From a virus (lineage: Duplodnaviria > Caudoviricetes), in IMG/VR virus record IMGVR_UViG_3300016476_000882, positions 1-41,655 of that record: a stretch of DNA of 41,655 nucleotides. The stretch is one strand, 5' to 3'. Shown in pieces: positions 14,810-41,655 of this stretch. Both the position numbers and the translations under genes were made by a program. Each line of letters begins with the position of its first letter. The first letter of the stretch is position 1. The notes below the pieces were generated by a model, which searched no databases, was not told where the DNA came from, and worked only from the letters and a program-made list of their open reading frames with translations.

Positions 14810-15286
14810 ATGGAAAATGTAATTAAAACCCTAGAAGTTTTGAATTTAACCGAGCAAGAGTTGCCCGAAGAAATTCAAGAGAAAATTTCTTACTTGGAAA
14901 ATTTAGTTCAATCACACAACTCACTTGTTGACGAACTAGATGAAAAGGATGAAGTAACTGAAGATGAAGAAAAATTGGTTGAGCAACAATCAAACAAAAT
15001 TGATTCATTGGATGCAAGAATTTCTCAAGAGATTCAAAACTTTGCAAAACTAGAGAACGAAAAAAAGGCTAAAGCAAAACACAAGGCTGAAACAGAAAAG
15101 AAAGAAAAAGAGGAAGCAGCGAAGAAAGCCGAAGAAGAAGCCGAAGCAAAAAAGAAAGCCGAAGAGGAAGCAGCCAATAAGAAACCCGTTGAGAAAAAAA
15201 GCGGCATTGGACTTGGTGGATTTATCTTAGGCGCAGTAGTACTGATAGCAACCGCAGGTGCGGTGAACGCATTTAGAAATAAGTAA
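14810..15286 (+). CDS. Coiled-coil protein with C-terminal membrane anchor
   Basis: E/K/A-rich helix followed by GLGGFILGAVVLIATAGAV. Confidence 0.75.
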   Translation: MENVIKTLEVLNLTEQELPEEIQEKISYLENLVQSHNSLVDELDEKDEVTEDEEKLVEQQSNKIDSLDARISQEIQNFAKLENEKKAKAKHKAETEKKEKEEAAKKAEEEAEAKKKAEEEAANKKPVEKKSGIGLGGFILGAVVLIATAGAVNAFRNK

Positions 15287-15501
15287 TGGAAGTAACGAGG
15301 GCACAAGTATATCACATTTTCGACCCACAACCTATTAGGATGTTGGATGTGATATTTGTTGCGCCTCTTATGATTTACGCAGGTGTGGAAGGTAAATTTC
15401 ACCCCTTTATCAAATGGTCACTTATCGGTGTTGGATTTGCTACTATGATTTACAATGGGATAAACTATCACAAAAATTATAGGGAAGAAGATGGCTTATA
15501 G
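15286..15501 (+). CDS. Small two-TM membrane protein
   Basis: Two hydrophobic segments; coupled start. Confidence 0.7.
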   Translation: MEVTRAQVYHIFDPQPIRMLDVIFVAPLMIYAGVEGKFHPFIKWSLIGVGFATMIYNGINYHKNYREEDGL

Positions 15502-16387: not shown

Positions 16388-16527
16388 AAAAAGAGTATTG
16401 GCTAATTTTAGGTGTTTTGGCACTTTCGGGTGGAGTTGCATATTTTTATTTTAGAAAAACTTCTAAAGACTTAGAAGGCACAACTCCCGAAGATGCAGAA
16501 GTATTAAGAACAATTAGAATTGTATGA
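16384..16527 (+). CDS. 47-aa N-terminally anchored membrane protein (not in ORF track)
   Basis: MKKEYWLILGVLALSGGVAYFYFRK...; ATGA overlaps at both ends. Confidence 0.7.
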   Translation: MKKEYWLILGVLALSGGVAYFYFRKTSKDLEGTTPEDAEVLRTIRIV

Positions 16528-17291
16528 GTTTAGATATAAAAATACCCGCTACCTCTATTGAATGGCAAGTCCCAAAAGGTCAAGTGCCATTTAGAGACCA
16601 AGCGATTTCTATTATAAAAAAATATAAAAATTTGTATGGTGCTCAATTTAAAGTTGCTGAAGAAGCCACGGGAGTGCCTACAATGATTTTAGTGGCTTTT
16701 GCGGGTGTAGAAGGTGGTGGATTAGAAAATGAAAAATTAACGGGCGCGAATGGTACTCCGTCAATTATGCAGATGTCCCCCGACACGGGTTATGATACAA
16801 TTCGATTAGAACTTCAAACAAACACTATTGGTAGATTATTCCCTTTTTATCAAGTGATACCTAATGCGTTCGTTGTTAAAAAGGCTATCCCTAAAGATTT
16901 TTGGAGTTCTTCAAACATAAAATTACGCCAACAAAAAGCAAGTGATTATTTATCGTTAAAACCTTTATCCGAGGTAAGACAAATGATTTTCACTGCATTA
17001 TATAAAAACGTAGGGTTTGCAATACTTTTAGGGGCTACTCATTTAGCACAACTAATGAAAAAAAGTATTCAAGAAGTTGGGACTGTTAGACTAGACCACA
17101 TTATCGTTAAGTATAATGGAGGTATTGGCACGTACAGAAATCGAGTTTTAAATACTGATTTAAAAAACGCTGATACAACTAACTTGGTTACAACTTACAC
17201 CAAACGGCATAATGCAACAACTCCCGCTTACATTATTAAATTAATGGGTAAGAATGGGTTGTTAGATGTACAAAAGCAAAGACTTGCATAA
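16524..17291 (+). CDS. Lytic transglycosylase-like (SLT/lysozyme fold) protein
   Basis: ILVAFAGVEGG (catalytic Glu), SIMQM (GLMQ-like), N...GA..L, KYNGGIG, terminal YIIK. Confidence 0.65.
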   Translation: MSLDIKIPATSIEWQVPKGQVPFRDQAISIIKKYKNLYGAQFKVAEEATGVPTMILVAFAGVEGGGLENEKLTGANGTPSIMQMSPDTGYDTIRLELQTNTIGRLFPFYQVIPNAFVVKKAIPKDFWSSSNIKLRQQKASDYLSLKPLSEVRQMIFTALYKNVGFAILLGATHLAQLMKKSIQEVGTVRLDHIIVKYNGGIGTYRNRVLNTDLKNADTTNLVTTYTKRHNATTPAYIIKLMGKNGLLDVQKQRLA

Positions 17292-18755: not shown

Positions 18756-19109
18756 ATGGAAGCAACGCAAGTAGCAACACAACAAGTAGCCCAAGAAGCA
18801 ACAAATGCCGCATCAATGGCAAGTAATCCTATACCTCCTACCCCCGCAACTATGGCGGCTCAAGGGATTAACCTAGAAGAAGGAGGCGATGCGCCCGAAG
18901 GTACTTCTGATGGTAGTAAGGATTGGGGTCAATGGATAGCAATTGGAATCATTTCATTAACCATTGTTTCTTTGGTTATGCAAATCTATGTTCAAAGAAA
19001 AACTATGATGAAATTGGACAAGGATGACGAATCAATGAAAAAGGACATAAATGAGTTAAAGTACAACTTGAAGAAAAATATGGGTAGTAAGTATGAAGAA
19101 CTACCTTGA
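18756..19109 (+). CDS. Single-TM protein with coiled coil
   Basis: WIAIGIISLTIVSLVMQIYV followed by heptads. Confidence 0.7.
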   Translation: MEATQVATQQVAQEATNAASMASNPIPPTPATMAAQGINLEEGGDAPEGTSDGSKDWGQWIAIGIISLTIVSLVMQIYVQRKTMMKLDKDDESMKKDINELKYNLKKNMGSKYEELP

Positions 19110-19740
19110 TGAAATAATTTACGGCAATCCTACTGATGACTTCCTCCCTTATTTACGTAAAGGAGGTTATGATTTTATTTTTGAAGATTTAAAAGACTAT
19201 CCTCATCCATCGAACTCAAGCGAAGCGGCTAAAGATGAAATTCGTGCTTTAATTGAATATCAAAATCTTCCCCAACAACAAGATGCGGATATGATTGCAA
19301 GGTATCTTGAGTACGATAAAAACTTAATTGAAATATTTAAGAACTATTGTAAAAACAAAGTAGGCGAAAACTTAGATTCTCAAATTGATGAAATCATTGA
19401 AGATAGTAAATTCTTGATGGTTAAACTAAAATTTCATTATCAGAGAATAAGACCATATCAATTAGCGGGGCAATACAAGGCAAAGTTATTCCCATTCAAA
19501 TCTTTATCAGCAGTTAATCCCTCTTATCCAAGTGGGCATACTTTTCAAGCAAGGGTATTAACTGAATTTATAGGGAATAAATATCCCGAACATTACGAAA
19601 TACTCTCTAATTTAACACACGATGTAGCAAGTAGTAGATTGTTTTTAGGACTTCATTATCCAAGCGATAATGACTTCGCGCACATTTGCGCCAAAAGACT
19701 AACTCAATCGAAGGAATTCACAAGTAAGTATGGAATATGA
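19093..19740 (+). CDS. PAP2 / acid phosphatase-haloperoxidase family protein
   Basis: K-x6-RP (KFHYQRIRP), PSYPSGH, SR-x5-H-x3-D (SRLFLGLHYPSD). Confidence 0.85.
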   Translation: MKNYLDEIIYGNPTDDFLPYLRKGGYDFIFEDLKDYPHPSNSSEAAKDEIRALIEYQNLPQQQDADMIARYLEYDKNLIEIFKNYCKNKVGENLDSQIDEIIEDSKFLMVKLKFHYQRIRPYQLAGQYKAKLFPFKSLSAVNPSYPSGHTFQARVLTEFIGNKYPEHYEILSNLTHDVASSRLFLGLHYPSDNDFAHICAKRLTQSKEFTSKYGI

Positions 19741-20540: not shown

Positions 20541-21521
20541 ATGAATACCGAGAACAATTTTGAAATAGATTTTAATCCGCTACAAGAGAATGTAATTCAG
20601 AGAGAATATACAAAACCGAATGTACAAGTAGTAGATACAACTCCTATTGAAGAACCCGTTTTTATTTCTCCAAGTTTTGAAGAATTGCAAAGCGGTTTAG
20701 AAAGCAACATTAATCCCGAACAACCATCACAAGGCGATGGTAGGACTGTTTGGGGTCAAAATGGGGAATCTTCTTCAGCGAACCCATACACTGAAACATT
20801 AGACAAGAAAGACCAAAAGGCGGCTTCCGCTGCATTGGTTGAAGCGGTTTTGGATGGGTACACTCAATTGAATGGATTTGCCAATAAGTTAGTTCAATTC
20901 AACCCAAAGAAAGTTGAGAATTTAATGCAAAGTGGGGAAATAGACCCCAATATTAGTTTGCCCGTTGGAGGGACTAATGTATCTATACTTGACTATATTC
21001 AAGAATACAATTCACAAACAGATGGTGTAATATCTGTAAGTGATGAATTCAAGGATAAGGTAAGACCCGTTATGCTTCGCGTATTTATGAAGCGTAATAT
21101 TGGTATGACCGATGAGCAATTGTTGGCTTACTATTTTGGTGTAGATATTATTTCTAAAGGAGCAACAGTTTTCGCATTACGTAAACAAAATGCAGAGTTG
21201 TTGGATTCTTTGAAAGAAATGACTTCACAAAGAGTTTCTACCCCTCCCCCAAGTGCACAACCCAAACAAGAGGCTAGGAGGGAAGAACCCGTAGAAAGCC
21301 CTAAGTACGAAGAACCAAAAGCCGAACCTACTCGTCAATATGTTGAGCCCGAAGAAGTTACTAATTTTGAACCCGTACAAGAGGCTATTGTAGTTGATGA
21401 GCCACTTCGTAAGTCAAGAACAAAAACTGCTATGCCTCAATTTGGAGATGCAAGTATTTTGCAACAGATGGAAGAAATAGCAAACGAAAAACCTAGAAGG
21501 ACTAGAAGAAAGAAAGGGTAA
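20541..21521 (+). CDS. Hypothetical protein upstream of the packaging ATPase
   Basis: 326-aa ORF, acidic/Pro-rich ends, basic tail. Confidence 0.75.
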   Translation: MNTENNFEIDFNPLQENVIQREYTKPNVQVVDTTPIEEPVFISPSFEELQSGLESNINPEQPSQGDGRTVWGQNGESSSANPYTETLDKKDQKAASAALVEAVLDGYTQLNGFANKLVQFNPKKVENLMQSGEIDPNISLPVGGTNVSILDYIQEYNSQTDGVISVSDEFKDKVRPVMLRVFMKRNIGMTDEQLLAYYFGVDIISKGATVFALRKQNAELLDSLKEMTSQRVSTPPPSAQPKQEARREEPVESPKYEEPKAEPTRQYVEPEEVTNFEPVQEAIVVDEPLRKSRTKTAMPQFGDASILQQMEEIANEKPRRTRRKKG

Positions 21522-21524: not shown

Positions 21525-22337
21525 ATGAGAGAACCGAAATTAGGAGTTGCGATAGGCAGAAAGGGAGCGGGAAAATCGTTTACAACGGATAAGGTAATTG
21601 CCAATTACGTTATGGGAAACCCCGCTAGTGGGATACTTCCAAGGAAAGCATTAATCCTAGATGTAAACGATGAGTTTACCCATATCAAGGCAATTGCACT
21701 AAAAGATTTAATCAAGTTTAGTGTTCACCCTTTCGTGGAGGCAAGACGAATAAGACCCTATCACCCAAACGGCAAGAAAATGACTTTGGACGATTTGGGT
21801 CATACCCTAGGAGTGATTTTAGACAATTATAGCGGAGGTTTACTATTGATTGAAGATATTAACCGATATATCAGCGATAGTATGCCTATGGACTTAATGG
21901 GTGCTATTGCAACGAACCGACACCGAGACTTGGATATTATTTTACACTATCAAGGTATAGGTAGGGTTTCCCCGAAGGTTTGGCAAAATATGAATTGGCT
22001 TCGTTTCCATAAAATTACAGAATCTGTAAAAAGACACGAAAAGAAGTTTGAAGATAAATATGAATTGCTACGCATAACCGAGTTTATGGTAAACAACGAA
22101 TACTTTTCAGACAACATTAGATTTTATCAGTATGTAGATGTAGAAAATATGTGTTTAATCGGTAAGATTGATGAGAAAAAATTCGATGTGGCGTGTACTC
22201 AATATTTAGAAGAAAATTATCGAAGGGTAATTACTCCAATGCTGCAAGTTAGGACTTCGAGTAATAAACCTAAATATACTCACGATAGTGCGATGAAGTC
22301 GGAACTACAACGACTGAAAAAAATGTACTTAAAGTAA
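21525..22337 (+). CDS. A32/FtsK-HerA-family genome packaging ATPase
   Basis: N-terminal Walker A GRKGAGKS, Walker B LLLIEDIN, and RHRDLDIILHYQ (RH-x-hhhh-Q signature of A32/P9-like ATPases); 270 aa, no nuclease domain. Confidence 0.8.
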   Translation: MREPKLGVAIGRKGAGKSFTTDKVIANYVMGNPASGILPRKALILDVNDEFTHIKAIALKDLIKFSVHPFVEARRIRPYHPNGKKMTLDDLGHTLGVILDNYSGGLLLIEDINRYISDSMPMDLMGAIATNRHRDLDIILHYQGIGRVSPKVWQNMNWLRFHKITESVKRHEKKFEDKYELLRITEFMVNNEYFSDNIRFYQYVDVENMCLIGKIDEKKFDVACTQYLEENYRRVITPMLQVRTSSNKPKYTHDSAMKSELQRLKKMYLK

Positions 22338-22344: not shown

Positions 22345-22372
22345 AAGCCCCCAACATAAATGGGGGTTTTTT
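22345..22372 (+). terminator. Intrinsic terminator
   Basis: AAGCCCCCA-loop-TGGGGGTTTTTT directly after the ATPase stop. Confidence 0.8.
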
Positions 22373-22450: not shown

Positions 22451-22458
22451 TAAATTTG
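22451..22458 (+). promoter_or_regulatory. Bacteroidota-type -7 promoter box (TAAATTTG) for the capsid transcript
   Basis: TAnnTTTG between the terminator and ATG 22500. Confidence 0.55.
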
Positions 22459-22499: not shown

Positions 22500-22610
22500 A
22501 TGAACGCAACAACAATTAAAAACATCTTAGGAAAAGTAGCCATCATAGTAGTTGGCGTACTAGTGGCGAATCAAGTGCAAACTATGATTGATAAAGCCAA
22601 AACCAAGTAA
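22500..22610 (+). CDS. 36-aa membrane peptide co-transcribed with the capsid candidate (not in ORF track)
   Basis: MNATTIKNILGKVAIIVVGVLVANQVQTMIDKAKTK*; A-rich start context. Confidence 0.7.
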   Translation: MNATTIKNILGKVAIIVVGVLVANQVQTMIDKAKTK

Positions 22611-22633: not shown

Positions 22634-23329
22634 ATGAGCAATATCCGCAAGTATCTCGCTGACGCACAAGGTCGTGCTCACGAGTCTTTTGTAAATGCTG
22701 ATGGATTCTTCGATAGCGATTTATCTTTCACTGCAAATGAAGACTTTATGTCTGCAAATGGCGAAATGGGTGGCGGTGCACCCACTTCTCAGCCTTACAT
22801 TATCACTGTATCTAACACAGGTTCTGCTACCTCTAACTTTGACGTATTAGGTTCTTACGAATACATCAACAATAGTGGTTTCAGTGCGGGTGGTTCTTTG
22901 ACCATTGGTTCAACTACCATCAGCAGCGGAACTCCAAACGTAACTTATCGCCAAATGTTGTATCAGTTTATGAACAACCCATTCAGCGTAGGTTTAACGT
23001 ATATCCAATCCGCTTCTAACACTCAGTTGTTGGAAGTAATTAGCGTAGAAACTAAAGACGCTAATGGTAACTTGGCTCAAAAGCCTTTAGTGCCAACTAT
23101 CGACCCATATCAGCAGCAGACAACTGTGTTGGCTATGCGCTACGGGTACAGAATTGATGGTTACACTAAGTTAATCATTAACCAAATCTTGGCTTCTACT
23201 AGCGTTAAGTTGTACTTGTACCCAAGCGACAACATCAACTTGGCTCGTGGATTGAACGGAAATGCAGTAAGCCGTCAATTCGGTTCTCCTGGAATTGTAC
23301 GTTCACAACCCGTGAAACTAGTAGGTTAA
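22634..23329 (+). CDS. Candidate major capsid protein (beta-rich, single jelly-roll size)
   Basis: Follows the packaging ATPase; bracketed by its own promoter and terminator; high-expression codons (AAC, TTC, TAC, ATC, CGT); alternating beta-strand pattern. Fold is inferred. Confidence 0.65.
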   Translation: MSNIRKYLADAQGRAHESFVNADGFFDSDLSFTANEDFMSANGEMGGGAPTSQPYIITVSNTGSATSNFDVLGSYEYINNSGFSAGGSLTIGSTTISSGTPNVTYRQMLYQFMNNPFSVGLTYIQSASNTQLLEVISVETKDANGNLAQKPLVPTIDPYQQQTTVLAMRYGYRIDGYTKLIINQILASTSVKLYLYPSDNINLARGLNGNAVSRQFGSPGIVRSQPVKLVG

Positions 23330-23348: not shown

Positions 23349-23382
23349 AAAGGGGTGGGTGGTTTCGCCCTCCCCTTTTTTT
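23349..23382 (+). terminator. Intrinsic terminator
   Basis: AAAGGGGTGGGTG-GTTT-CGCCCTCCCCTTTTTTT. Confidence 0.85.
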
Positions 23383-23393: not shown

Positions 23394-23510
23394 ATGGAAG
23401 AAAGAATTCAAAAATTAGAAGCCCAAACTGAATGGTTGATGAAATTGCATAAAACTGCATTTATCGTCATCGGTGTAGGTTTGGCAATTTATTTAATATC
23501 AAGAAAATGA
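23394..23510 (+). CDS. 38-aa C-terminally anchored membrane peptide (not in ORF track)
   Basis: MEERIQKLEAQTEWLMKLHKTAFIVIGVGLAIYLISRK*. Confidence 0.7.
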   Translation: MEERIQKLEAQTEWLMKLHKTAFIVIGVGLAIYLISRK

Positions 23511-23893
23511 ACTTTTACGAATACATCGCTAAATCAAATCCATACGGGGCAAAAGCCGTAATTAATCAATTCGGTTATCAAGTAGTTGACCCTCGTAGAA
23601 TGGGCGATAATCTTCGTATGTTGGTAGCACAAGAAGGTGAACCCGCATTGAAAGCAATTGCCGATATACATCCCGACAAAGATTTATTTGTTGAATTATA
23701 TTCAAATGCAAATGGCAATTGTGGTTGCAAGAAAAATGAAAGTTTCTTGGGAGCGGACGGTATCCTCACGGGTGCAGTTTTAGGTAACAACCAACAACAA
23801 AATGATTCGACAAAATTAGCATTACAAACTAATGCTATGTTGATAGCGGCTACAATCATTATAGCAGCAGCAATTATTGTATCAAAAAAATGA
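23507..23893 (+). CDS. Putative virion membrane protein
   Basis: C-terminal TM + KK; CGC and FLGADG motifs. Confidence 0.7.
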   Translation: MNFYEYIAKSNPYGAKAVINQFGYQVVDPRRMGDNLRMLVAQEGEPALKAIADIHPDKDLFVELYSNANGNCGCKKNESFLGADGILTGAVLGNNQQQNDSTKLALQTNAMLIAATIIIAAAIIVSKK

Positions 23894-24510
23894 AATCACT
23901 AGAACCAAATAAAATATACGCTCTTACGGCTTATACGATTGATAACAATCCAAAAGAAACTATTGCTTTAATCCGTAGAAATGGGGTAATGATAGCGGAT
24001 AATGCTACTTCAACACAAATTGAAAAAGCATTTGCTGCATTATTACCAAAAAGCGAAAAGTTTAGAAATGACTTTTCTAAATTAATTCTGAGAACGGCTC
24101 AAGAAGATTATAGTGGGTTTGCATCAACTGATTTACCTAGTGGTAAAGGTTTGTCAACAACTACAAGTTCTAGCCCATTAGTATTATCGGGGAGCACTCC
24201 AATTGAAGCACCAACGGGCGTTACTACTAAGACTAAAAAGAGTTTTTCAGATACGGCAGTAGGGTCTTTTTTAAGTGGTCTTTTGACTCCCGAAAATGCT
24301 CAAAGTGCAATTAACACGGGATTGAATGTATGGTCTATAAAGCAAACGGGTCAACCCGCTAGTGTTGTAACTACTGATTTGAACGCAGGTAGAAATGAAT
24401 TACCACAAAGCGGAAGCGGTAGAGGAATTTCAACTACTACCACAATAGTTTTAGTTGTTGGAGCATTAGCCTTAATCGGTGTTGCAGTTTACTTTTATAA
24501 AAAGAAGTAA
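23890..24510 (+). CDS. Putative virion membrane protein, Ser/Thr-rich
   Basis: C-terminal TM + KKK. Confidence 0.7.
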   Translation: MKSLEPNKIYALTAYTIDNNPKETIALIRRNGVMIADNATSTQIEKAFAALLPKSEKFRNDFSKLILRTAQEDYSGFASTDLPSGKGLSTTTSSSPLVLSGSTPIEAPTGVTTKTKKSFSDTAVGSFLSGLLTPENAQSAINTGLNVWSIKQTGQPASVVTTDLNAGRNELPQSGSGRGISTTTTIVLVVGALALIGVAVYFYKKK

Positions 24511-24513
24511 TTT

Positions 24514-24738
24514 ATGGAACAATTTGAGGATGCATTAGATAACGTAAAAAAATTAAAGAGCCAAGATGCTCACGATTCTTTCGTAGAGAAATCTAAGAAA
24601 GTAATTAAAGGTGGGGCGGTTGGTGTAGTTGCGGGTCTTATGTATGCTTGGTACACTAAAAAGAATCTTTACGTTTTTGCCGTATTAGGGGCAATAGGTG
24701 GAGGTGCGATAAATTACTTTTTATTTGAAAGAGATTAA
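24514..24738 (+). CDS. Two-TM Gly-rich membrane protein
   Basis: GGAVGVVAG and LGAIGGG segments. Confidence 0.7.
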   Translation: MEQFEDALDNVKKLKSQDAHDSFVEKSKKVIKGGAVGVVAGLMYAWYTKKNLYVFAVLGAIGGGAINYFLFERD

Positions 24739-24739
24739 T

Positions 24740-25153
24740 ATGACACTTGATTCAAACATAATAAACAAACAATATTTCAATCCACAAATAAGTCGAGTTA
24801 AAAACTTGACTTTAAGTGCTGATGGGGAAATAGGAGAGAGTGTTTCTAAGCCACCGATTGAAGGTATAACTCGATTAAAAGTTACTAAGCCCTTTATTTA
24901 CATAAATGCTCAAAGCAAACCAACAGAAATGGAGGTTGGCTCAATTTTATGGGGAAGACCAACTTCAAATAAAAATGTGTTTATATATGAGACTGAAGGG
25001 AGAAAGTATAATCTAATTTTAGGTGAAAATGCCGAAATATTCACCAAACCAAAAGAAGCCCCACTAGATAATAAAAATAAAAAAGGTGGATTGTTGATGT
25101 TTTTAGGTGTTGCTTTAGGTGCTTACGTAATCTATAACTTATTTAAGAAATGA
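24740..25153 (+). CDS. Putative virion membrane protein
   Basis: C-terminal TM + KK; LSADG motif; ATG 24740 preferred. Confidence 0.7.
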   Translation: MTLDSNIINKQYFNPQISRVKNLTLSADGEIGESVSKPPIEGITRLKVTKPFIYINAQSKPTEMEVGSILWGRPTSNKNVFIYETEGRKYNLILGENAEIFTKPKEAPLDNKNKKGGLLMFLGVALGAYVIYNLFKK

Positions 25154-25335
25154 AAAAAGAATACATATACTACGGACTAGGTATATTGGCAGCGGTGCTA
25201 ATAATTAAGTCTTTAACAAAAGACGATGTTTTGGATTCCGCTATTAATGGAACACCTCAACCCGATGGATTTGCTAATTTCACACAAGATGAAATTACTT
25301 ATGATGACCAACTTTACAAGAAACAAGCATTTTAA
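25150..25335 (+). CDS. Small N-anchored membrane protein
   Basis: N-terminal TM. Confidence 0.65.
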   Translation: MKKEYIYYGLGILAAVLIIKSLTKDDVLDSAINGTPQPDGFANFTQDEITYDDQLYKKQAF

Positions 25336-25346
25336 TTTTTAAAACT

Positions 25347-25460
25347 ATGAATAAAACAACAAAAACTATCTTAACTCTTGCCGTTGTTGCAGGTGTTTTG
25401 TATTTCGTTTTCAAGAAGCCAAAACCAACGGCTGCGACTACGACTACTGAAGACAAATAA
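25347..25460 (+). CDS. 37-aa membrane peptide (not in ORF track)
   Basis: MNKTTKTILTLAVVAGVLYFVFKKPKPTAATTTTEDK*. Confidence 0.7.
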   Translation: MNKTTKTILTLAVVAGVLYFVFKKPKPTAATTTTEDK

Positions 25461-25480
25461 TAATTAATTATATTTGAAGT

Positions 25481-25954: not shown

Positions 25955-25955
25955 T

Positions 25956-27212: not shown

Positions 27213-27213
27213 A

Positions 27214-28776: not shown

Positions 28777-28777
28777 A

Positions 28778-30063: not shown

Positions 30064-30064
30064 T

Positions 30065-31322: not shown

Positions 31323-32198
31323 ATGAATATAATTTTTCAAATAGATGGCGGTTTGGGCAAGTGTATCATTGCCACCGCAATTTGCCAAACTATCAAGGTT
31401 CAACATCCCGAAGCAAAACTTATTGTTGTTAGTGGATACCCCGAAGTTTTTTTAAACAATCCTTACGTTGATAGGTCATTCGGATTCGGTAACATTCAAT
31501 ATTTTTATGAGGAATATATTCACAATAAACCTTGCAAAGTACACGCTCACAATCCCTATTTTGAGATTGCCCATATTCAAAAAAGCGAACATATCCTTAA
31601 AACTTGGGCGAAACTTAATGGGTATCAATACAACGGGGAATATCCCCAAATATACCTTACCCAACGCGAGATGGAATTATATTCCCAAAAGTTCGTCTCG
31701 GATAAGCCGTTGATGGTGATTCAGACAAACGGGGGTGCACCAAATCAAGAAAATAAATATTCGTGGGCTAGAGATATTCCACAACAAACGGCTCAAAAGG
31801 TTGTAGACCATTTTGCCGAAAAATACTTGGTTTGTCATTTGCGTAGGGAAGACCAAACCGCATTAAATAACACTGTTGTTGTTTCTGATAACTTCCGTGC
31901 TATGTGCGTTTTACTAATGATGGCTCAAAAGCGTCTTTTGATTGATTCATTTGCTAACCACGCTTGTGCTGCTTTACAACTTCCATCAGTGGTTTGTTGG
32001 ATTGCCAATGCCGAAGGCGTATTCGGTTACGATACACACATCAATATTCAAGCGAAAGATTGGACTAAAAAACCCGAATTGCGTAATGCGTATTTAGGTA
32101 TGTTTAATATCACGGGAGACCCATTAGAAATGCCTTATAATAGTTCTAATGATATATTCGATGCGGAAACTATAATCGAGGCTTTAGAAAAGATTTAA
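31323..32198 (+). CDS. GT9-like (heptosyltransferase-fold) glycosyltransferase
   Basis: GGLGK.I.AT, PEVF.NNPYVD, IDS..NH..AAL..PSVV.W. Confidence 0.75.
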   Translation: MNIIFQIDGGLGKCIIATAICQTIKVQHPEAKLIVVSGYPEVFLNNPYVDRSFGFGNIQYFYEEYIHNKPCKVHAHNPYFEIAHIQKSEHILKTWAKLNGYQYNGEYPQIYLTQREMELYSQKFVSDKPLMVIQTNGGAPNQENKYSWARDIPQQTAQKVVDHFAEKYLVCHLRREDQTALNNTVVVSDNFRAMCVLLMMAQKRLLIDSFANHACAALQLPSVVCWIANAEGVFGYDTHINIQAKDWTKKPELRNAYLGMFNITGDPLEMPYNSSNDIFDAETIIEALEKI

Positions 32199-32201
32199 TG
32201 T

Positions 32202-33023
32202 ATGGTAGATAAAATATTTTTCAATTCGAGTTTGCCTCGTAGCGGTAGCACTTTGTTGCAAAACATTATGGCTCAGAATCCCGACTTTTATGTTACTCCC
32301 ACTAGTGGAGTATTTGAGTTGTTGTATGCTGCCCAAGCCAATTATAGGAATAGCCCCGAATTTAAAGCCCAAGATTCAGAAACTATGGAAAAGGGGTGGA
32401 AAGGCTTTTGCCACGATGGTATGTTTGGCTTTTTCAATGCTATTACCGACAAGAAGTTTGTAATGGAAAAAAGCCGTGCTTACGGAATACATAGAGACTT
32501 TTTAAATTTCTTTTATCCCGAACCAAAGATTATTTGTATGGTTCGAGATTTGAGAGATGTGTATTGCTCTATGGAAAAGAATTTCCGTAAGAATCAGCAT
32601 TTAGGAAACAATATGGTAGACCACGCTCAATTAATTGGTACTAGTACTCCAAAACGTATTGATGTTTGGGCAAACGGACAACCCGTTGGTATGGCTATCG
32701 AGAGACTTTCTGAAATTATGCGACAAGGGTATGATTCAAAAATACTTTTTGTAAAGTTTGAGGACTTATGTATTAATCCCGATACTGAAATGCATCGTAT
32801 TTATGAGTATTTGGGATTACCATATTTCAAACACGATTGGGACAACATTGAACAAATAACCCAAGAGGACGATAGCCAATATGGAATTTTTGGAGACCAC
32901 GCTATACGTACTAGATTAGAAGTTGTTCCTAGCACCGCTAAACAAGTTTTAGGGCGCGATGTTACTGATTGGATTTGGAATACTTACAAGTGGTTTTTTG
33001 ATTATTTTAGATATACAAAATGA
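32202..33023 (+). CDS. PAPS-dependent sulfotransferase
   Basis: 5'-PSB loop SLPRSGSTLL, 3'-PB motif VRDLRDVYCS, FEDL...P. Confidence 0.88.
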   Translation: MVDKIFFNSSLPRSGSTLLQNIMAQNPDFYVTPTSGVFELLYAAQANYRNSPEFKAQDSETMEKGWKGFCHDGMFGFFNAITDKKFVMEKSRAYGIHRDFLNFFYPEPKIICMVRDLRDVYCSMEKNFRKNQHLGNNMVDHAQLIGTSTPKRIDVWANGQPVGMAIERLSEIMRQGYDSKILFVKFEDLCINPDTEMHRIYEYLGLPYFKHDWDNIEQITQEDDSQYGIFGDHAIRTRLEVVPSTAKQVLGRDVTDWIWNTYKWFFDYFRYTK

Positions 33024-33442
33024 TAAACTTAAATGATAACAAAGTAGTTTTAGTTAGGAATAACGAAAACTATCCCGAAAACTCCGATAAGAAATATATT
33101 TTCATCATCGGTCAAATTGCTCAACACGAAGAAAATGAAAATTTACAAGAAGTTGTAAATGCTGAAGTCTATTTAGTAGATGCTATCAATAGCGATGGTG
33201 CAGTAGTTTTGACTTGGAGCGGTTTAAGCGCAAATGGTCTATACAAACATCATTTTTTATTCGTAGGAAAATCTTTTGATGTTGTAGAAAATGAAAATGC
33301 AGTTATTGGTATTGTATCAAACCAAGAAGTTGAGGAAACTCCCGAAACGGAAAAAGTTTCCGAAGTAGAAGAAACTCCCGAAACCGAAGAAGTTCGTGAA
33401 GAGCCTCAAGCGGATATGGAGGTAATTAAAGATAAAGAGTAA
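33020..33442 (+). CDS. Hypothetical protein with acidic repeat tail
   Basis: EVEETPETE occurs twice. Confidence 0.65.
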   Translation: MINLNDNKVVLVRNNENYPENSDKKYIFIIGQIAQHEENENLQEVVNAEVYLVDAINSDGAVVLTWSGLSANGLYKHHFLFVGKSFDVVENENAVIGIVSNQEVEETPETEKVSEVEETPETEEVREEPQADMEVIKDKE

Positions 33443-33909
33443 TGATAATAGTTTTCTTTGGACAACCCCATAGTGGAAAATCAACTTTGAGTAAGTTGTT
33501 GTTTGGACACCTTAAATCAAAGGCAAATAAACCATCAGCACATTTTATTGACAACGATAAATTTCGGTTGTTGTTTAAAGACCAAGACTATTCTAGGGAG
33601 GGGCGATTGAGAAACCTTAAACGTGCTAGTGAAATGGCATATTATGAGTGCTCACTCAATCGCTACGTCCTAATTTCTTTTGTATTTCCTTATGCTGAAG
33701 CGAGGCAATACATTGAATCTTTAGGTAAACAAGTAAAGTGGATTTACCTTACCTACGATGTAAAAGAAAAGAGGGGTAGAGAGGCGTTTCATTGCGTTGA
33801 TTTTGAAGAACCAACGGAGATAGCCCAAGAAAATATTTTATCAGTGAATACTTCCGAATTTACCGAAACGGAATGTTTACAAAAGATTGTTGACTTTTTG
33901 AAATTGTAA
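33442..33909 (+). CDS. cysC: Adenylylsulfate (APS) kinase-like P-loop kinase
   Basis: GQPHSGKSTL, D.D..R, DYSREGR.RN, FEEP. Confidence 0.7.
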   Translation: MIIVFFGQPHSGKSTLSKLLFGHLKSKANKPSAHFIDNDKFRLLFKDQDYSREGRLRNLKRASEMAYYECSLNRYVLISFVFPYAEARQYIESLGKQVKWIYLTYDVKEKRGREAFHCVDFEEPTEIAQENILSVNTSEFTETECLQKIVDFLKL

Positions 33910-33929
33910 TAAATGTAAAATGTAAAAAT

Positions 33930-34292
33930 ATGGAAAAGAAAAAATATGCAATGTATGTAGGTCGTTGGCAAGTATGGCATAGTGGTCATCGTTGGCTAAT
34001 AGACCAAAAGTTAAATCAAGGTATTCCCGTACTTATTGCGGTTCGTGATGTTGAAAAAGACGAAAAGAACCCTTATAGTGCGGAAGAAGTTCGTTTGAAC
34101 ATTATGAAACAACTATACCCATTAACCAATGAAGGTATGGTTAAAGTAATTATTATTCCCGATATAGAGAGTTTCAACTATGGTCGAGATGTAGGATATG
34201 AGGTAATAGAACATATTCCACCATCAGAAATTGCTGAAATTAGCGGGACTAAAATTCGCGAACAACTGAAGAATGAAAAGGGCAATTTATAA
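33930..34292 (+). CDS. HxGH nucleotidyltransferase (cytidylyltransferase-like; possible minimal ATP sulfurylase)
   Basis: GRWQVWHSGH, NPY, ISGTKIR. Confidence 0.75.
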   Translation: MEKKKYAMYVGRWQVWHSGHRWLIDQKLNQGIPVLIAVRDVEKDEKNPYSAEEVRLNIMKQLYPLTNEGMVKVIIIPDIESFNYGRDVGYEVIEHIPPSEIAEISGTKIREQLKNEKGNL

Positions 34293-34458
34293 GACTATTA
34301 CTTATAGATTAGTTGGCTCACTTTCCACATTTTTTATTGCTTATTTCACTACTAACAGAATTGATGTTGGTATTTATATGAGCGTAACTGATTTGCTTTG
34401 GAAGCCAATTCTATATTTTGGTCACGAAATTATTTGGTCTAAGTTACGTCTAAAGTAG
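34273..34458 (+). CDS. DUF2061-like small membrane protein
   Basis: KTITYR..S..TF.IAY...K.ILYF.HE..W. Confidence 0.7.
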   Translation: MKRAIYKTITYRLVGSLSTFFIAYFTTNRIDVGIYMSVTDLLWKPILYFGHEIIWSKLRLK

Positions 34459-35058: not shown

Positions 35059-35370
35059 ATGAATAAAGACTTAAAGGACGGATTAATTATTCTCGGTATT
35101 GTTGTATTAGGGGTTATAGTTTTATTGCCTCGTAAGAAAGGTATTGCCGCTCCTAAAGAAGCCGAATCTTCAAAAGTCAAGCAAAAAGAAAACGCTCGTA
35201 TTATTTTGGATGCTTACTTAGATGCAGTTGATGCAAAAGAAAGCCCATCCAACTTGAACAAACTTAATGCGATGTTCGTTGAGGAATACAAAATGAAAGT
35301 AGTTCGCACAAAAGACGGAAAATACGTTGCTCGTACTTTAAGTGGCGAAGATGTTTTGATGGTTAAATAA
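35059..35370 (+). CDS. N-anchored membrane protein
   Basis: N-terminal TM. Confidence 0.7.
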   Translation: MNKDLKDGLIILGIVVLGVIVLLPRKKGIAAPKEAESSKVKQKENARIILDAYLDAVDAKESPSNLNKLNAMFVEEYKMKVVRTKDGKYVARTLSGEDVLMVK

Positions 35371-35816
35371 TGCCAAGTATAGCACCAATAATAACTATTA
35401 ATAGTTCTCCCGTAGTCGAGGTTAGGGGAGCAAGTGGTATTTCTTATGACGAAATAAACGCATCAATAGGTCTTAACTACGATTATTTGTTATACAACAT
35501 TTATCAATCTACTTCTAATATTTCTCAATTACTACAACCCGTCCGATTGCGTAAATTCAACAAGTTTGGTGACAAAAATGAAGTGAATTTACAAATGATA
35601 GTAGACCCATATCAAAGTACTGCTTCATTAAATCAATCTATGTTTGGTTACGACTATGCGTTTGATTCAAACAACGCATTTTTCGCTAATATAGAGGCAA
35701 ATACATCAGTCGGATACAGAATTGAAGTCGAAGAACAAACGGCTCAATCAATGTTTAATGGAAACACTACAATCAATGAGATAGAGTTCTTCAAAGATTA
35801 TATTAGTGATTTTTAA
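35370..35816 (+). CDS. Paralog of the candidate capsid protein (minor capsid/vertex candidate)
   Basis: Shares QLL-x11-G-x11-DPYQ and downstream Y.Y..D...I.A.TSV with 22634..23329. Confidence 0.65.
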   Translation: MPSIAPIITINSSPVVEVRGASGISYDEINASIGLNYDYLLYNIYQSTSNISQLLQPVRLRKFNKFGDKNEVNLQMIVDPYQSTASLNQSMFGYDYAFDSNNAFFANIEANTSVGYRIEVEEQTAQSMFNGNTTINEIEFFKDYISDF

Positions 35817-36345: not shown

Positions 36346-36657
36346 ATGGCAATCAAAATCAACAAACCCCTTACCACTTCGGAAGGTTTTACTGTAAATG
36401 AAACATTTGGATTCTTAGGTATTTATTTACTTGGAGATTCGTGGACTAATATTGCTTACTTTAAAAGCGAAGCCGATTATTTAGCGGGTAAACAATCGTT
36501 AAATATTCCCGAACTACCATCACGTTGTGGTTTAGCATTAGATGCTCAAGAGTTTTGGAGCACTGATTTAATGGCAAATATCCACAATCAATGTATCACT
36601 CAAATTGAGGCGGTTACGGGTGCGGGGACTTGCTCTATTGTAACTTTAGAACCTTAA
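36346..36657 (+). CDS. Hypothetical protein (spike module)
   Basis: 103-aa ORF with A-rich start. Confidence 0.7.
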   Translation: MAIKINKPLTTSEGFTVNETFGFLGIYLLGDSWTNIAYFKSEADYLAGKQSLNIPELPSRCGLALDAQEFWSTDLMANIHNQCITQIEAVTGAGTCSIVTLEP

Positions 36658-36665
36658 TCCTTACT

Positions 36666-36932
36666 ATGCCAACTACAACCTTTCAAGGATATAATGCACA
36701 AGAATTAACTCCCGATGATGATAACAACATCACCATCGGGGGTACTTCTATTGACAACTTGGAGAATGGTGTATGTTTGTATATTGGTGGCAGCGGTAAC
36801 ATAAAAGTTACAATGTTAAGCGGTCAAATAGTGACTTTTGTTGGATTGGTTGCAGGTTCATTCTTGCCAATTCAAATTAAAAAGTTGTGGGCTACTGACA
36901 CTTCTGCAACTAATATTATAGGTTTATACTAA
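36666..36932 (+). CDS. Spike-base-like protein (similar to RcGTA head-spike base Rcc01079 family)
   Basis: LYIGGSGNIKV...VTF.GL.AGSFLPIQIKKLWAT.T.ATNIIGL; ATG 36666 preferred. Confidence 0.6.
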   Translation: MPTTTFQGYNAQELTPDDDNNITIGGTSIDNLENGVCLYIGGSGNIKVTMLSGQIVTFVGLVAGSFLPIQIKKLWATDTSATNIIGLY

Positions 36933-37084
36933 TGCCAATAGTCATTGCAATGGGAAATTGCATTGGATGGGAATCCAATGTAGGAGGAGGCGTTGTAGAT
37001 ACCAACGTACTTCTATGGTCTGACCCCGACAATGCTCTGCTTATAGATAGTGGAGGGGGTAAAATTTTAATTTCATTTATATAA
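36932..37084 (+). CDS. 50-aa protein between spike base and fibre (not in ORF track)
   Basis: MPIVIAMGNCIGWESNVGGG...LLIDSGGGKILISFI*; TAATG coupling. Confidence 0.6.
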   Translation: MPIVIAMGNCIGWESNVGGGVVDTNVLLWSDPDNALLIDSGGGKILISFI

Positions 37085-37090
37085 ATATTT

Positions 37091-40000
37091 ATGCCAACTA
37101 ATAAAACCACGGGGGCGTTACCCTTATTATCACAATCAGAAATAAAACCTTGTTTTACTATGCCTATTTGGGATGTGGATGCACAGACCACGAAGCAAGG
37201 TTGTATATCGGATATTATCAATAGTCAACAACTTTATACATTAGGTCTTGGTGCTAATAGTACCATACGTTGTGGAGTTGGCAATAGTGCTATTGGGGCG
37301 TTTTCAAATGCTTTAGGTGGGCAGAACAACTGTTCGGCATCTACATTTTCATCCATCGTTGGTGGATGTGCTAATATCGCTAGTGGATATGGTTCTTTTG
37401 TAGGTGGAGGTATTTCAAATTCTGCTTTAGGAGTGTGTTCATTCGTTGGTGGAGGTCAATTTAATAGGGCTTGTATTGGAAAGGGAAATGTTGTTGTTGG
37501 TGGAGAATTAAATACCGCATCTTCTGATTATTATTCATCAGTAGTTGGTGGACGTGCTAATACATCAAGTGGAAGATATGGCTTAGTTGGTGCGGGATTT
37601 AGTAACACTGCAAGTGGTTATGCTAATTTTATAGGTGGTGGTAAAGGCAATGTATCAACTGTTTGTTATTCATCTATTGTTGGTGGACAATCTAATACTA
37701 TAAGTGCTGCTCATTCTTTTATTGGTGGAGGAGCATCTAATACTGCTAGTGGAGCGTGTAGTTTAGTTGTAGGTGGTCAATCAAATAGAGCATCGGGTGT
37801 TTATTCAAGTGTTTTAGGTGGTTTATCTAATTGCGCAATTGGTGCGGGGGCGGTAGTAGTAGGAGGATGTGGTAATTGTAATAGTGCACAAGACCAAGGT
37901 GGTTTTATAGGTGCGGGTACAAACAATAGAATTGATGGTTCGCAAACTTATGCCGCATCAATTTTAGGAGGTGATTGCAATATTATTTGCAACAATGGAC
38001 AATATAGTTCAATTGTTGGTGGTCGTTTAAGTAATATTTCAGCCCGAAATTCAATGATTGGTGCGGCTGCACTAAGTAGTATAAGTGGTACTTATAGTTT
38101 TATTGGTTCGGGTTCTTTTAATGGAATATCCTCATCAAGTTCTTTTATTGGAAGTGGTTCTAATAATAATGTTACGGGAGATGCTTCCGTTGTTGTAGGT
38201 GGAAGATGCAACCAAGTTACAAGTTGTTGTAGTATTGTTGGCGGTGGATTTGCTAACTGCGCTACATCTGTATTTAGTAGTGTTGTAGGTGGGTGTGGCA
38301 ATATTGCGTGTGGATATGGCTCTTTCATTGGAGGTGGAAATTTAAATAGAATATTGGGTTCTGGTCTTTTCTCAAGCATTTTAGGAGGATTTTCAAACTG
38401 TGTTAATTTTACAGGTTTTATTGTTGGAGGTAATAATAACGTATCAGTAGGAGGAGCATCATTTATCGGAGCGGGTAATCAGAATTGTGTAAGTGCTAAC
38501 AATTCATTTATAGGTGCAGGTAATCAAAATACTAATAGTGGATATAATGGAGTATTAGTTGGAGGATTGACTAATTGTGTTTGTGTTGGTTATGGATTTA
38601 TAGGTGGGGGTAGAAATAATAAAGCACTAATAAGTAATTATGCAACTATTGTTGGAGGTCAAAACAATACTGCAAGTGGTTATTGGTCATTCCTTGGAGG
38701 TGGTAATAACAATACTTCAAGTGGATATATGAGTTTTCTTGGTGGTGGTCAAGCAAACACATCAAGCGGTTGTAGGTCGGTAGTTGTAGGAGGGGCTTCA
38801 AATATTTCAAGTGCAATTAATAGTTTTGTTGGTGGCGGTTCATCTAACCAAGCCACAAACAATTTTGCCGTAATAGGGGGAGGTCAAGTAAACCAAGCCA
38901 TATCTGTATTTTCTAGTGTAGTTAATGGTTGTGGAAATGTTTCTTCGGGATATGGAGCATTTATAGGTAGTGGTAGAAGTAACTCTAATGCGGGGTGCTT
39001 TAGTTCAATATTGAATGGTTGTAGTAACTCAATCAACTCTGTTGCTCAAAATAGTGCTATTTTATCGGGTTATTTAAATACAATAACTAATACTACTTGT
39101 GGAGTTATTGTTGGTGGTTTTCAGAATACAATAAGTGGATATAGTAACGAAGGTGGATTTATTGGTGGTGGTAGAAGTAATACTATTTGTGGAGATGCTA
39201 GATATGGTTCTTATATAGTAGCAGGTCAAAATAATACTGTAAGTGGATATGGTTCGGGAGTCCTTGGTGGATGTTGTAACAGAGCATTAGGTGTTAATTA
39301 TAGTCCTAATGTTGGAACTTTTGTTTTAGGGGGTAGTTTAAATTGTGCATCAAATGAAACTACTATTGTTTCGGGATGTTGTAACGTAAGTGTTGGGTAT
39401 CGCTCAACTATTGTTGGAGGTAATTTTAATTGCATACCAAATACAGGGGTATTAGCATTTATAGGTAACGGAAATTCTAATAGAGCATTAGGAACTTATG
39501 CAGCAATAGTAGGTGGTTTCTCTAACTGCGCTTGTTGTGATTCTTTCATAGGAGGAGGTAACAATAACTTAGCAACGGGAACTGATAGTATAGTTGTAGG
39601 AGGTTTCCTTAACTGCGCTACCTCTGTATTTAGTAGTGTTGTAGGTGGATGTGGTAATCAAGCATTGAGTTATGGTACTTTCATTGGTGGAGGTGTTAAT
39701 AATTGTGTTTGTTCAATTGCTACTTTTGGAGCAATAGTTGGAGGTCTTAATAATTGCATTAGAAATACTAATTATAGTGTTGTAGTTGGTGGTGAGTGTA
39801 ATGTAGCGGGATTTAGTGCTCCAGCAGACCATATATTTGTAGGAGGCGGTAAAAACAATCGTGCTTGTGAGTGGTGTTCGGCAGTAGTTGGCGGAGAAAA
39901 TAATTTAGCGGGAGCAAGAAGGTCTTTTGTTGGTGGAGGATGTAATAATACTGCGGGAAATCTTGATAGTTTTGTTGGTGGTGGTGTTGGTAATAGTGCT

Positions 40001-41655
40001 ACAACAAATAGTCATACAGTAGTTGTAGGAGGGTTTAATAATAATGCTACGGGCACTCAATCATTTGTAGGTGGTGGAAGTGGTAATACCGCATCGGGAT
40101 ACCGCTCAAGCGTTGTAGGAGGTCAAAATAGTGCTGCAACGGGTTGTTGGTCAAGTGCAAGTGGTTTTTATGGGAGAGCGTGTGGTAATTATTCATTTGT
40201 AGGTGGTGGTAATAGAGTTTGTGCAACTAATGAATGTGGTGTTGCCGTAGGTGGTAGATTAAATTGTTCTACGGGAATAGGCAGTTCAATTGTAGGTGGT
40301 GCTCAAAACGTAGCAAGTGCAAATAATTCCATAGTGGTCGGAGGTTCTTCAAATACATCAAGTGGTAATTATAGTTCTGTTTTAGGTGGTGGATTGAACT
40401 GCGCTACATCTGTATTTAGTTCTGTTGTAGGTGGGTGTGGAAATAGAGCAACGGGATACGCATCATTTGTTGGAGGTGGTGTTTCTAACTCTGCGGTTGG
40501 AGCAAATAGTGCAGTAGTAGGTGGTTTTAATGTTAGAGCGTGTGCAAGTAACTCAAGTGTTTTAGGTGGTTCAAATAATCTTGTTGATAGCACATCAATT
40601 GGTTCTTCTATTTTAAATGGTGAAGCAAATGGTATTAGTGTTTGTTCACGATATTCTTTATTAGGTGGTGATAGTAATTCGATTGGAGGTTGCACTTATG
40701 CATCTGCTCTTATGGCGGGACGTGCAAACTCTCTTGTTGGCACTTACGCTTTTATGGGTGGTGGGTTTGTTAATACAGTTAGTAATGTTTATGGTTTTAT
40801 AGGTACGGGGTGGAACAATATAGCAAGTAATGTTAGGTCTTCAGTTATTAATGGTGCTTGTAATACGGCATCAGGTTATTCCTCTTTTATTGCTAATGGA
40901 GGTTTAAATTGTACAACGGCTAGTAGGGCTTTTATTGGAAATGGTGAGGGTAATGTTGCATCGGGAGGATGTTCATTTATAGGTAATGGAAGATTAAATT
41001 TAGCATTAGGGGGTTTTGCCAATATAGTAGGTGGGTTCTCTAACTGTGCTTGTAATTCTGCATTTATTGGAGGTGGCAGCAACAACATTTCAACGGGTAT
41101 TTATTCAAATGTTGTTGGAGGTTTAACAAACTGCTCTCAAGGGATATTTGCGGCAGTCGTTGGTGGTTGTGCAAACGCGGCATCGGGTAACGCATCATTT
41201 GTTGGAGGTGGTACGGGCAATAGGGCTACATCTTGCCGTGCAGTAATTGCGGGTGGAGACCAAAACTTAGCAAGTGGAAACCCTTCATTTGTTGGAAGTG
41301 GTTTCTTAAATAATGCTACGGGTGTTTATTCGGGTATTGTTTCGGGTCTTAGGAACTTGGCTTCATCAAACAACGCATTTGTCGGTGGTGGTTTTTGTAA
41401 CATAGCAAGTGGAGCAAATTCAACTATTAGTGGTGGATATTGCAACACTGCTTCATCAGCCTATGCAGTTATTGGTGGTGGTGTAAATAACTTGGCTAAT
41501 GGAGTATATTCGACAATTGTATCGGGTAATACCAATTGCAATTGTGGATTAGCATCTGTTGTCTTAGGTGGTGAATCAAACGCAATTACTCACAACTATG
41601 CGGGTGTTTACGGATGCGCGATTACTTCATCAATGGATTGTGCTTGGCACGTTAA
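37091..41655 (+). CDS. Giant Gly/Asn/Ser/Cys-rich repeat fibre/adhesin (at least 1521 aa, runs off the window; not in ORF track)
   Basis: ATG 37091 MPTNKTTGALPLL...; about 15-aa repeats S-[FVI]-[VI]-G-G-G-x-x-N-x-A-x-G; same frame at every point checked, through to ...CAWHV at the window end. Confidence 0.88.
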   Translation, partial: MPTNKTTGALPLLSQSEIKPCFTMPIWDVDAQTTKQGCISDIINSQQLYTLGLGANSTIRCGVGNSAIGAFSNALGGQNNCSASTFSSIVGGCANIASGYGSFVGGGISNSALGVCSFVGGGQFNRACIGKGNVVVGGELNTASSDYYSSVVGGRANTSSGRYGLVGAGFSNTASGYANFIGGGKGNVSTVCYSSIVGGQSNTISAAHSFIGGGASNTASGACSLVVGGQSNRASGVYSSVLGGLSNCAIGAGAVVVGGCGNCNSAQDQGGFIGAGTNNRIDGSQTYAASILGGDCNIICNNGQYSSIVGGRLSNISARNSMIGAAALSSISGTYSFIGSGSFNGISSSSSFIGSGSNNNVTGDASVVVGGRCNQVTSCCSIVGGGFANCATSVFSSVVGGCGNIACGYGSFIGGGNLNRILGSGLFSSILGGFSNCVNFTGFIVGGNNNVSVGGASFIGAGNQNCVSANNSFIGAGNQNTNSGYNGVLVGGLTNCVCVGYGFIGGGRNNKALISNYATIVGGQNNTASGYWSFLGGGNNNTSSGYMSFLGGGQANTSSGCRSVVVGGASNISSAINSFVGGGSSNQATNNFAVIGGGQVNQAISVFSSVVNGCGNVSSGYGAFIGSGRSNSNAGCFSSILNGCSNSINSVAQNSAILSGYLNTITNTTCGVIVGGFQNTISGYSNEGGFIGGGRSNTICGDARYGSYIVAGQNNTVSGYGSGVLGGCCNRALGVNYSPNVGTFVLGGSLNCASNETTIVSGCCNVSVGYRSTIVGGNFNCIPNTGVLAFIGNGNSNRALGTYAAIVGGFSNCACCDSFIGGGNNNLATGTDSIVVGGFLNCATSVFSSVVGGCGNQALSYGTFIGGGVNNCVCSIATFGAIVGGLNNCIRNTNYSVVVGGECNVAGFSAPADHIFVGGGKNNRACEWCSAVVGGENNLAGARRSFVGGGCNNTAGNLDSFVGGGVGNSATTNSHTVVVGGFNNNATGTQSFVGGGSGNTASGYRSSVVGGQNSAATGCWSSASGFYGRACGNYSFVGGGNRVCATNECGVAVGGRLNCSTGIGSSIVGGAQNVASANNSIVVGGSSNTSSGNYSSVLGGGLNCATSVFSSVVGGCGNRATGYASFVGGGVSNSAVGANSAVVGGFNVRACASNSSVLGGSNNLVDSTSIGSSILNGEANGISVCSRYSLLGGDSNSIGGCTYASALMAGRANSLVGTYAFMGGGFVNTVSNVYGFIGTGWNNIASNVRSSVINGACNTASGYSSFIANGGLNCTTASRAFIGNGEGNVASGGCSFIGNGRLNLALGGFANIVGGFSNCACNSAFIGGGSNNISTGIYSNVVGGLTNCSQGIFAAVVGGCANAASGNASFVGGGTGNRATSCRAVIAGGDQNLASGNPSFVGSGFLNNATGVYSGIVSGLRNLASSNNAFVGGGFCNIASGANSTISGGYCNTASSAYAVIGGGVNNLANGVYSTIVSGNTNCNCGLASVVLGGESNAITHNYAGVYGCAITSSMDCAWHV

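Follow-up and report, generated by a model that had tools for sequence, protein, structure and literature searches.

A gene block for a likely tailless, inner-membrane particle with a predicted single-jelly-roll shell protein in a lineage of large linear bacterial viruses

Gene organization of the window

The virus record IMGVR_UViG_3300016476_000882 was analyzed over its entire 41,655 bases (the window). All of its genes lie on the same strand, it holds no tRNA, and its genes include those for an A32-type packaging ATPase, a beta-rich protein of 231 amino acids (aa), a long run of small membrane proteins and a fibre region (Table 1). These features had been listed in an original prediction that read the layout as a lineage of large single-jelly-roll membrane viruses; all of them are present, and that reading is supported by one predicted jelly-roll domain, the A32 motor and linear relatives of 68-132 kb. 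When the 63 open reading frames (ORFs) of the window were scanned against Pfam and PHROG, no family was found for the ATPase, the 231-aa protein, the zincin or most small membrane ORFs. The gene for the 231-aa protein (the capsid gene) occurs on 53 viral contigs, with the ATPase within 10 kb at 51 of the 53 loci and the zincin at 46; twelve relatives that were fetched are collinear with the window, which represents the central part of a bacterial virus's linear genome and holds its particle-building block. A tailless particle with an inner membrane is likely because, besides an A32-type ATPase, the window encodes a likely shell protein with one predicted jelly-roll domain and some 28 small proteins predicted to lie in membranes. 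Overall, a tailless membrane virus with the 231-aa protein as its shell and the A32-type ATPase as its motor is the best explanation, and one that we hold with good confidence.

Table 1. Features of the window and, in the last row, of its relatives (loci, capsid-gene loci on viral contigs; contigs, the window plus the 12 fetched relatives)
Position	Strand	Feature	Evidence
3026..14779	+	Large polyvalent proteins (ADP-ribosyltransferase domains, PhixxGG repeats), intein-bearing MoxR ATPase and vWA-like partner	
15791-16387	+	Endolysin-like gene	PHROG endolysin, E 7.6e-15
16524..17291	+	Lytic transglycosylase	G002 homologue matches Pfam SLT, E 2.7e-6; no direct match
17597-17923	+	Lipoprotein-like gene, likely lysis	Putative role, from sequence
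17920-18135	+	Two-helix holin-like gene, likely lysis	Putative role, from sequence
19093..19740	+	PAP2-family phosphatase (lipid-phosphatase-like), core gene	Pfam PAP2, E 8.8e-8; 13/13 contigs
19730-20128	+	RusA resolvase	Library scan match
20541..21521	+	Acidic conserved protein, 326 aa, immediately 5' of ATPase	50/53 loci; 13/13 contigs
21525..22337	+	A32/P9-type (FtsK-HerA) genome-packaging ATPase, 270 aa	Motifs, predicted structure
22345..22369	+	Terminator-like hairpin 3' of ATPase	
22451..22458	+	Bacteroidota-type -7 promoter motif TAnnTTTG, 5' of capsid transcript	
22500..22610	+	Membrane protein, 36 aa, first gene of capsid transcript	
22634..23329	+	Likely major capsid protein, 231 aa	Beta-rich, predicted fold, codon bias
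23352..23371	+	Terminator-like hairpin 3' of capsid gene	
23394..30831	+	Block of small membrane proteins (one or two helices, basic tails), ending in LEA_2-like protein	LEA_2, E 3.3e-6
26430..27212	+	Zincin-type metallopeptidase, HEFSH (HExxH) motif	Motif in sequence; 46/53 loci, 13/13 contigs
31323..34458	+	Glycosylation/sulfation cassette (sulfotransferase, APS kinase, cytidylyltransferase), adjoins fibre	
35370..35816	+	Capsid paralogue, 148 aa, matches capsid residues 91-209	HHalign 99.1%, E 1.7e-18
35820-36302	+	NUMOD4-HNH homing endonuclease, inserted 3' of capsid paralogue	
36346..41655	+	Fibre base proteins and Gly-rich repeat fibre (>1,521 aa, continues past window end)	
L054:10182-12331 (G001) and homologues; L284:537-2474; L280:16088-17744		Pair of basic protein and ~245-aa protein	

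The likely capsid protein and its paralogue

The 231-aa protein consists of an N-terminal helix (residues 2-16), a disordered acidic linker with FxNADG motifs (21-40), a jelly-roll-type domain (51-200) and a C-terminal arm. Its predicted structure contains one beta-sandwich domain, for which all structural matches listed are jelly-roll, and double-jelly-roll chains align with it over one domain only; on this model it is likely a protein of one jelly-roll domain and the main shell protein. The claims that its gene is separately transcribed and codon-optimised are borne out by terminator-like hairpins flanking it (3 such hairpins found in all vs 1.0 +/- 1.2 in shuffles), by a likely promoter upstream, from which it is separated by the 36-aa membrane ORF, and by its C-ending Phe/Tyr/Ile/Asn codons (35 of 57 vs a mean of 26%), the highest share among 54 genes (p = 2.5e-8). 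Made in bulk, the protein would tile the shell as single-jelly-roll subunits, its N-terminal helix perhaps anchoring the shell to a patch of host membrane loaded with the small viral membrane proteins.

The protein forms 1,103 clusters at 50% identity. Its Atlas clusters carry the label Uroviricota, and all Atlas matches of the candidate were <0.9. It has no sequence relative in the PDB, and tblastn against 50,697 phage records gave zero matches for it, for the ATPase or for the PolB-like protein described below. In BFVD its model found VP4 of SPV1 at rank 49 (E 2.2e-3, TM 0.26); a wide structural search did not list the capsid chains of SH1 or P23-77 among its best 50 matches, a result compatible with kinship, and HHalign of the capsid profile with VP4/VP7 and VP16/VP17 gave <1%, a weak test against single sequences.

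The 148-aa paralogue, which lacks the first two strands, is encoded by the window and by 11 of the 12 fetched contigs, at least 12 kb from the capsid gene and outside the eight most codon-biased genes. From its sequence it is likely a vertex (penton-like) protein, and as such would sit at the vertices of the shell. A 120-aa gene near it (L054:16331-16690 in G001; L059:11067-11426) starts with a stretch resembling capsid strands 54-77, which the paralogue lacks (HHalign 11.6%, E 0.003); the two might jointly complete one fold. Further diverged copies of the capsid domain occur in non-structural regions (G004 L067:6650-7171, 14648-15109 and 17225-18415; P0126, P0162), and some of these extra copies form a tandem pair within one protein of 397-411 aa, a double jelly roll arising anew. 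G001 has no NUMOD4-HNH homing endonuclease at the paralogue site.

The packaging ATPase

The ATPase carries Walker A (GxxGxGKS/T), Walker B (LLLIED), NRH and HxQ motifs, which are almost invariant across 24 homologues, and the nearest structure to its predicted fold is STIV2 B204; the claim of an A32-type enzyme is thus upheld by motifs and by a predicted B204/A32 fold alike. In HHalign comparisons P23-77 is its best profile match among five reference ATPases, and the ATPase of SSIP-1 (Salisaeta icosahedral phage 1) is a weak match (8.7%). The 326-aa acidic protein is, from its position, likely a packaging-vertex or scaffold partner, which would aid the ATPase in pumping the genome into a preformed particle.

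These results bear on whether the virus is a diverged member of Singelaviria (Halopanivirales-like) in which the 231-aa protein and its paralogue co-form capsomers like VP4/VP7 or VP16/VP17. Such an origin would explain why the same genomes encode two single jelly rolls that are paralogues, and also the P23-77 profile match; a linear genome with inverted terminal repeats (ITRs) and no canonical polymerase is also described for alphasphaerolipoviruses (PMC5332951). However, SH1 and P23-77 pairs are adjacent, whereas the paralogue here is distant, lacks two strands and is not among the strongly codon-biased genes, and the closest ATPase structure is B204 of STIV2; we consider this alternative unlikely.

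Search for tailed-phage genes

The hallmarks of Caudoviricetes (terminase large subunit, portal and HK97 capsid) were not found, as predicted: among the 63 window ORFs, which also gave no tail-tube match, the exceptions were matches over an intein region and a weak terminase PHROG match (E 0.007) on the packaging ATPase. Four hallmark families (PF03237, PF04466, PF04860, PF05065) were found in 0 of the 22 longest contigs, with positive controls, and no terminase, portal or HK97 PHROG was found among 257 ORFs of G001, G002, four ITR genomes and G024:C9 (a scan without short ORFs and those clustered with scanned ones, and with G003-G005, G007, G010, G021 and G025 outside it). The PHROG terminase matches on 6615-9116 cover the intein, and an intein-free homologue, a MoxR AAA+ ATPase, lacks them; 'tape measure' and 'baseplate' matches span only the peptidase or lysozyme domains of ORFs of 160-213 aa. 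That the virus is a tailed phage with head genes diverged beyond detection, and the jelly-roll protein a head decoration or cement protein, is very improbable in view of these results, of the ITR ends, and of the 13-contig core (the window and the 12 fetched relatives), in which every conserved ORF of terminase or portal size is accounted for.

Membrane proteins and the zincin

Hydrophobic helices are predicted in 23 of the 49 ORFs of at least 50 aa from position 14810 on (threshold 1.6; 18 at 1.9 and 29 at 1.4), and in 1 of 14 ORFs to the left of it. Five additional membrane ORFs of 36-47 aa lie in gaps, giving a total of ~28, close to the 'about 30' originally counted, although some (17310-18135) resemble lysis genes. 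A [FYWL]xxA[DN]G motif occurs nine times in the capsid-to-LEA block (2,620 residues) vs three times elsewhere (10,783; p = 5e-5); both this pattern and PhixxGG, and the protein groups compared, were chosen in light of the data, which makes the p-values generous. From its sequence the zincin is likely a maturation protease, which would trim the capsid linker and the membrane proteins sharing the [FYWL]xxA[DN]G motif.

The very many membrane proteins, together with the PAP2 phosphatase and LEA_2-like protein in the core and the lack of a specific capsid match, would also suit a virus-like element of membrane-vesicle or pleomorphic type, in which a vesicle studded with proteins carries the DNA and the jelly-roll protein serves as a loose coat or an adaptor rather than an icosahedral shell. 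This alternative seems improbable, however: motors of the B204/A32 type fill preformed shells, the endolysin-like genes imply lytic release, and the paralogue and long fibres fit vertex spikes.

Relatives, genome form and distribution

ITRs were found in 5 of the 22 longest contigs (67.8, 68.8, 72.5, 74.1 and 84.4 kb) and direct terminal repeats in none; some other long contigs reach 100-102 kb, and G024:C9 (132.5 kb) is viral from end to end, with an 11-bp tandem repeat that lies at its two tips in inverted orientation. These tip repeats are telomere-like (L270:1-60, L276:12330-12486), and a near copy lies 30 bases from the right end of G003 (L066:1181). That G024:C9 is a provirus was ruled out by small viral-type ORFs and even GC content to both ends. 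The assembled ITRs measure 123-133 bp and are probably truncated, comparison of G002 with G016 indicating at least 489 bp; no hairpin or palindrome was found at the assembled tips. The whole genome of the window virus is likely 70-80 kb, because the closest relative, G001 (94% identity), extends ~16 kb past the fibre and collinear genomes have 8-24 kb to the left of the glycosyltransferase where the window starts.

At least half of the sampled words were present in 11 of the 24 runs listed, spanning 8 studies apart from the possible source (runs with a small word share, X17-X20, are outside these counts), and the habitats, where stated, are fresh, river, drinking, lagoon or unspecified water. 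The lineage is common and uncultured, and lives in fresh water on bacterial hosts.

Host and replication

The motif TAnnTTTG, which we take to be a Bacteroidota promoter motif, occurs 7 times in 1,560 intergenic bases (vs 1.1 in shuffles), once directly 5' of the capsid transcript; a sigma-70 promoter scan of the window stayed at chance level (4 vs 3.6 expected). A Shine-Dalgarno-like string stands ahead of 6 of 62 genes, and 38 of 62 have A at -3. Of ten genome-collection matches, the two longest sit in Sediminibacterium and Flavobacteriales bins, and the remaining eight are contigs of 4-33 kb in bins of unrelated groups. The predicted Bacteroidota host is thus probable, on the promoter motifs and the two longest matches, rather than demonstrated.

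No replication genes had been noticed in the window, which is correct except for the RusA resolvase. Outside the window, the fetched contigs carry RecT (11 of 12), a RecE-like nuclease (10 of 12) and a helix-turn-helix (HTH) gene with a 295-aa neighbour (11 of 12), between which an initiator-like PHROG lies in G013 and G024. The HTH gene is of Cro/C1 type (L056:9327-9548 and homologues, in 11 of the 12); given this gene, and as no integrase was seen, the virus may have a prophage state as a linear plasmid.

Ten of the 12 also carry a pair consisting of a basic protein of 290-350 aa and a ~245-aa protein (233-259 aa), the latter present in 18 of the 22 long contigs, including all five with ITRs. 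In 22 rows down to 18-25% identity D, K, R and D are invariant and follow one another as we take them to do in PolB (Asp of motif A, Lys of motif B, Arg of pre-C and Asp of motif C); TDxxxA[YF]W is found in 49 of 49 and motif C in 48 of 49. The nearest named Atlas clusters are PF03175 (0.86) and PF00136 (0.84), each on 10% of members and a lead only. Comparison with PolB gave no HMM or HHalign signal (HHalign score 15.0-15.1 vs up to 18-21 for 60 block-shuffled controls); no longer relatives were found among 7,993 candidates (a weak search), and the divergent G025 copy had no relatives on viral contigs. Canonical PolB (PF03175) was found in 0 of the 22 long contigs, with no control positive either, and canonical PolB motif A or C strings in none of 1,529 ORFs. 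The basic gene stands directly 5' of the ~245-aa gene at 57 of 62 loci (redundant loci counted), and 44 of 57 basic proteins end in GG plus 1-5 residues, an ending found in 37 of 1,060 ORFs overall and the tag that marks the proteins presumed to be packaged. Host enzymes could plausibly copy the bulk of the genome, with this pair, as terminal protein and minimal PolB-like enzyme, completing its ends, an assignment from sequence that we make tentatively.

Entry, decoration and left-arm genes

The transglycosylase likely serves entry. The predicted spike base and fibre are recognizable in ORF 36630-36932, which matches a tail-fibre PHROG (E 5.5e-12), and in 37091->41653, with 20% Gly and 43 GGxxNxxx[SG] repeats; the glycosylation/sulfation cassette likely decorates the fibre. 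In G002 a collagen-repeat fibre region (~16 kb, L058:12323 to L059:8336) ending in an S74 chaperone domain replaces the Gly-rich fibre, with glycosyl- and methyltransferases 5' of it. PhixxGG occurs 24 times in four large left-arm proteins (2,085 residues) vs 7 times elsewhere (9,797), and among the fetched contigs the MoxR cluster is present in 10 of 12 and its vWA-like partner in 11 of 12. The polyvalent proteins are likely packaged cargo, with MoxR and its partner as their chaperone, and fibre, transglycosylase and membrane would deliver them with the DNA. In relatives they bear RelA/SpoT and anti-restriction domains (L057:8038-9150, L078:1161-3923). Two LAGLIDADG inteins lie in the glycosyltransferase (1-1341) and the MoxR ATPase (6615-9116), the G002 homologues of which are intein-free, and a Mom-family DNA modification gene (1740-2405; Pfam E 2.8e-36) is absent from the 12 fetched relatives.

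Comparison with known systems

Halopanivirales (SH1, P23-77) likewise have an A32-type ATPase, single-jelly-roll capsid proteins (a putative role here) and many membrane proteins, and viruses of SH1 type have linear genomes with ITRs and terminal proteins but, according to PMC5332951, no canonical polymerase. Of the features of Singelaviria, the A32-like FtsK-HerA ATPase and a predicted single-jelly-roll fold are present; however, Halopanivirales have two adjacent capsid genes in 17-31 kb (~30 kb for SH1-like viruses according to PMC5332951), whereas here one dominant gene and a distant truncated paralogue belong to genomes of 68-132 kb, with no detected capsid sequence tie. An icosahedral shell over an internal membrane would fit the ~28 predicted membrane proteins. 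Of the features of Varidnaviria (Tectiviridae, Corticoviridae, Turriviridae, Finnlakeviridae), an A32/P9 ATPase is present here, and 35370-35816 may take the single-jelly-roll penton role; the double jelly roll is absent, residues 51-200 being predicted to form a single domain. PRD1 and PM2 have the same order of ATPase, small membrane gene, capsid gene and membrane genes and share the transglycosylase, and PRD1 has its terminal-protein gene directly 5' of the polymerase, as in the candidate pair; their genomes, though, are 10-15 kb, and the PRD1 polymerase has 553 aa vs ~245 aa here. STIV and STIV2 (Turriviridae) supply the nearest structural match of the ATPase, B204; STIV itself infects archaea, and its circular genome of 17.3 kb encodes a capsid protein with a double jelly roll (PMC5332951).

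The tailless membrane phage SSIP-1 also has a genome that is large by comparison, 43,788 bp, but, unlike those of the lineage, circular; it has two capsid types (PMC6356626), and none of 24 of its 57 proteins matched the capsid profile. The Flavobacterium membrane phages FLiP and phiCjT23 have single-stranded DNA (~9 kb in FLiP) and a double jelly roll, and the FLiP group is without a packaging ATPase according to PMC5894146, which also gives 7-18 kb for the described double-jelly-roll groups of prokaryotic viruses. SPV1 (Portogloboviridae), archaeal and circular with ~20 kb, has one single-jelly-roll main capsid protein over a membrane and, to our knowledge, no packaging ATPase; the ATPase here and the ITR ends of relatives set the lineage apart from that family.

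No description of the lineage was found in the literature searched (subscription journals were mostly outside it, and supplements of metagenomic surveys could hold such contigs); 10.1101/2025.08.03.668216 concerns a different, 4.6-kb element. The lineage works like PRD1, SH1 or STIV and fails one defining feature of each family, the features missing being a double jelly roll, an adjacent capsid pair and tailed-phage head genes. It is a large new variant of tailless A32-type viruses, with linear genomes exceeding those of the described bacterial viruses of such build that were compared. Rather more doubtfully, it could be an abundant high-rank lineage outside Varidnaviria and Singelaviria, with large shells built from one independently recruited single-jelly-roll protein and matured by its own zinc protease, and with a PolB-like, protein-priming enzyme of ~245 aa (under half as long as the polymerases of PRD1 or phi29) that finishes the linear genomes. 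The lineage has more than 1,100 capsid-protein clusters, recurs in fresh waters and is missed by capsid profiles, and at up to 132 kb it stands against small described prokaryotic viruses of such build. A candidate terminal protein with a minimal polymerase offers a testable answer to end completion of ITR genomes without a canonical polymerase, and a shell built from one single-jelly-roll protein, in combination with an A32 motor, bears directly on the origin of vertical jelly-roll capsids, the issue underlying the split of Singelaviria in 2025 (PMC12714852).
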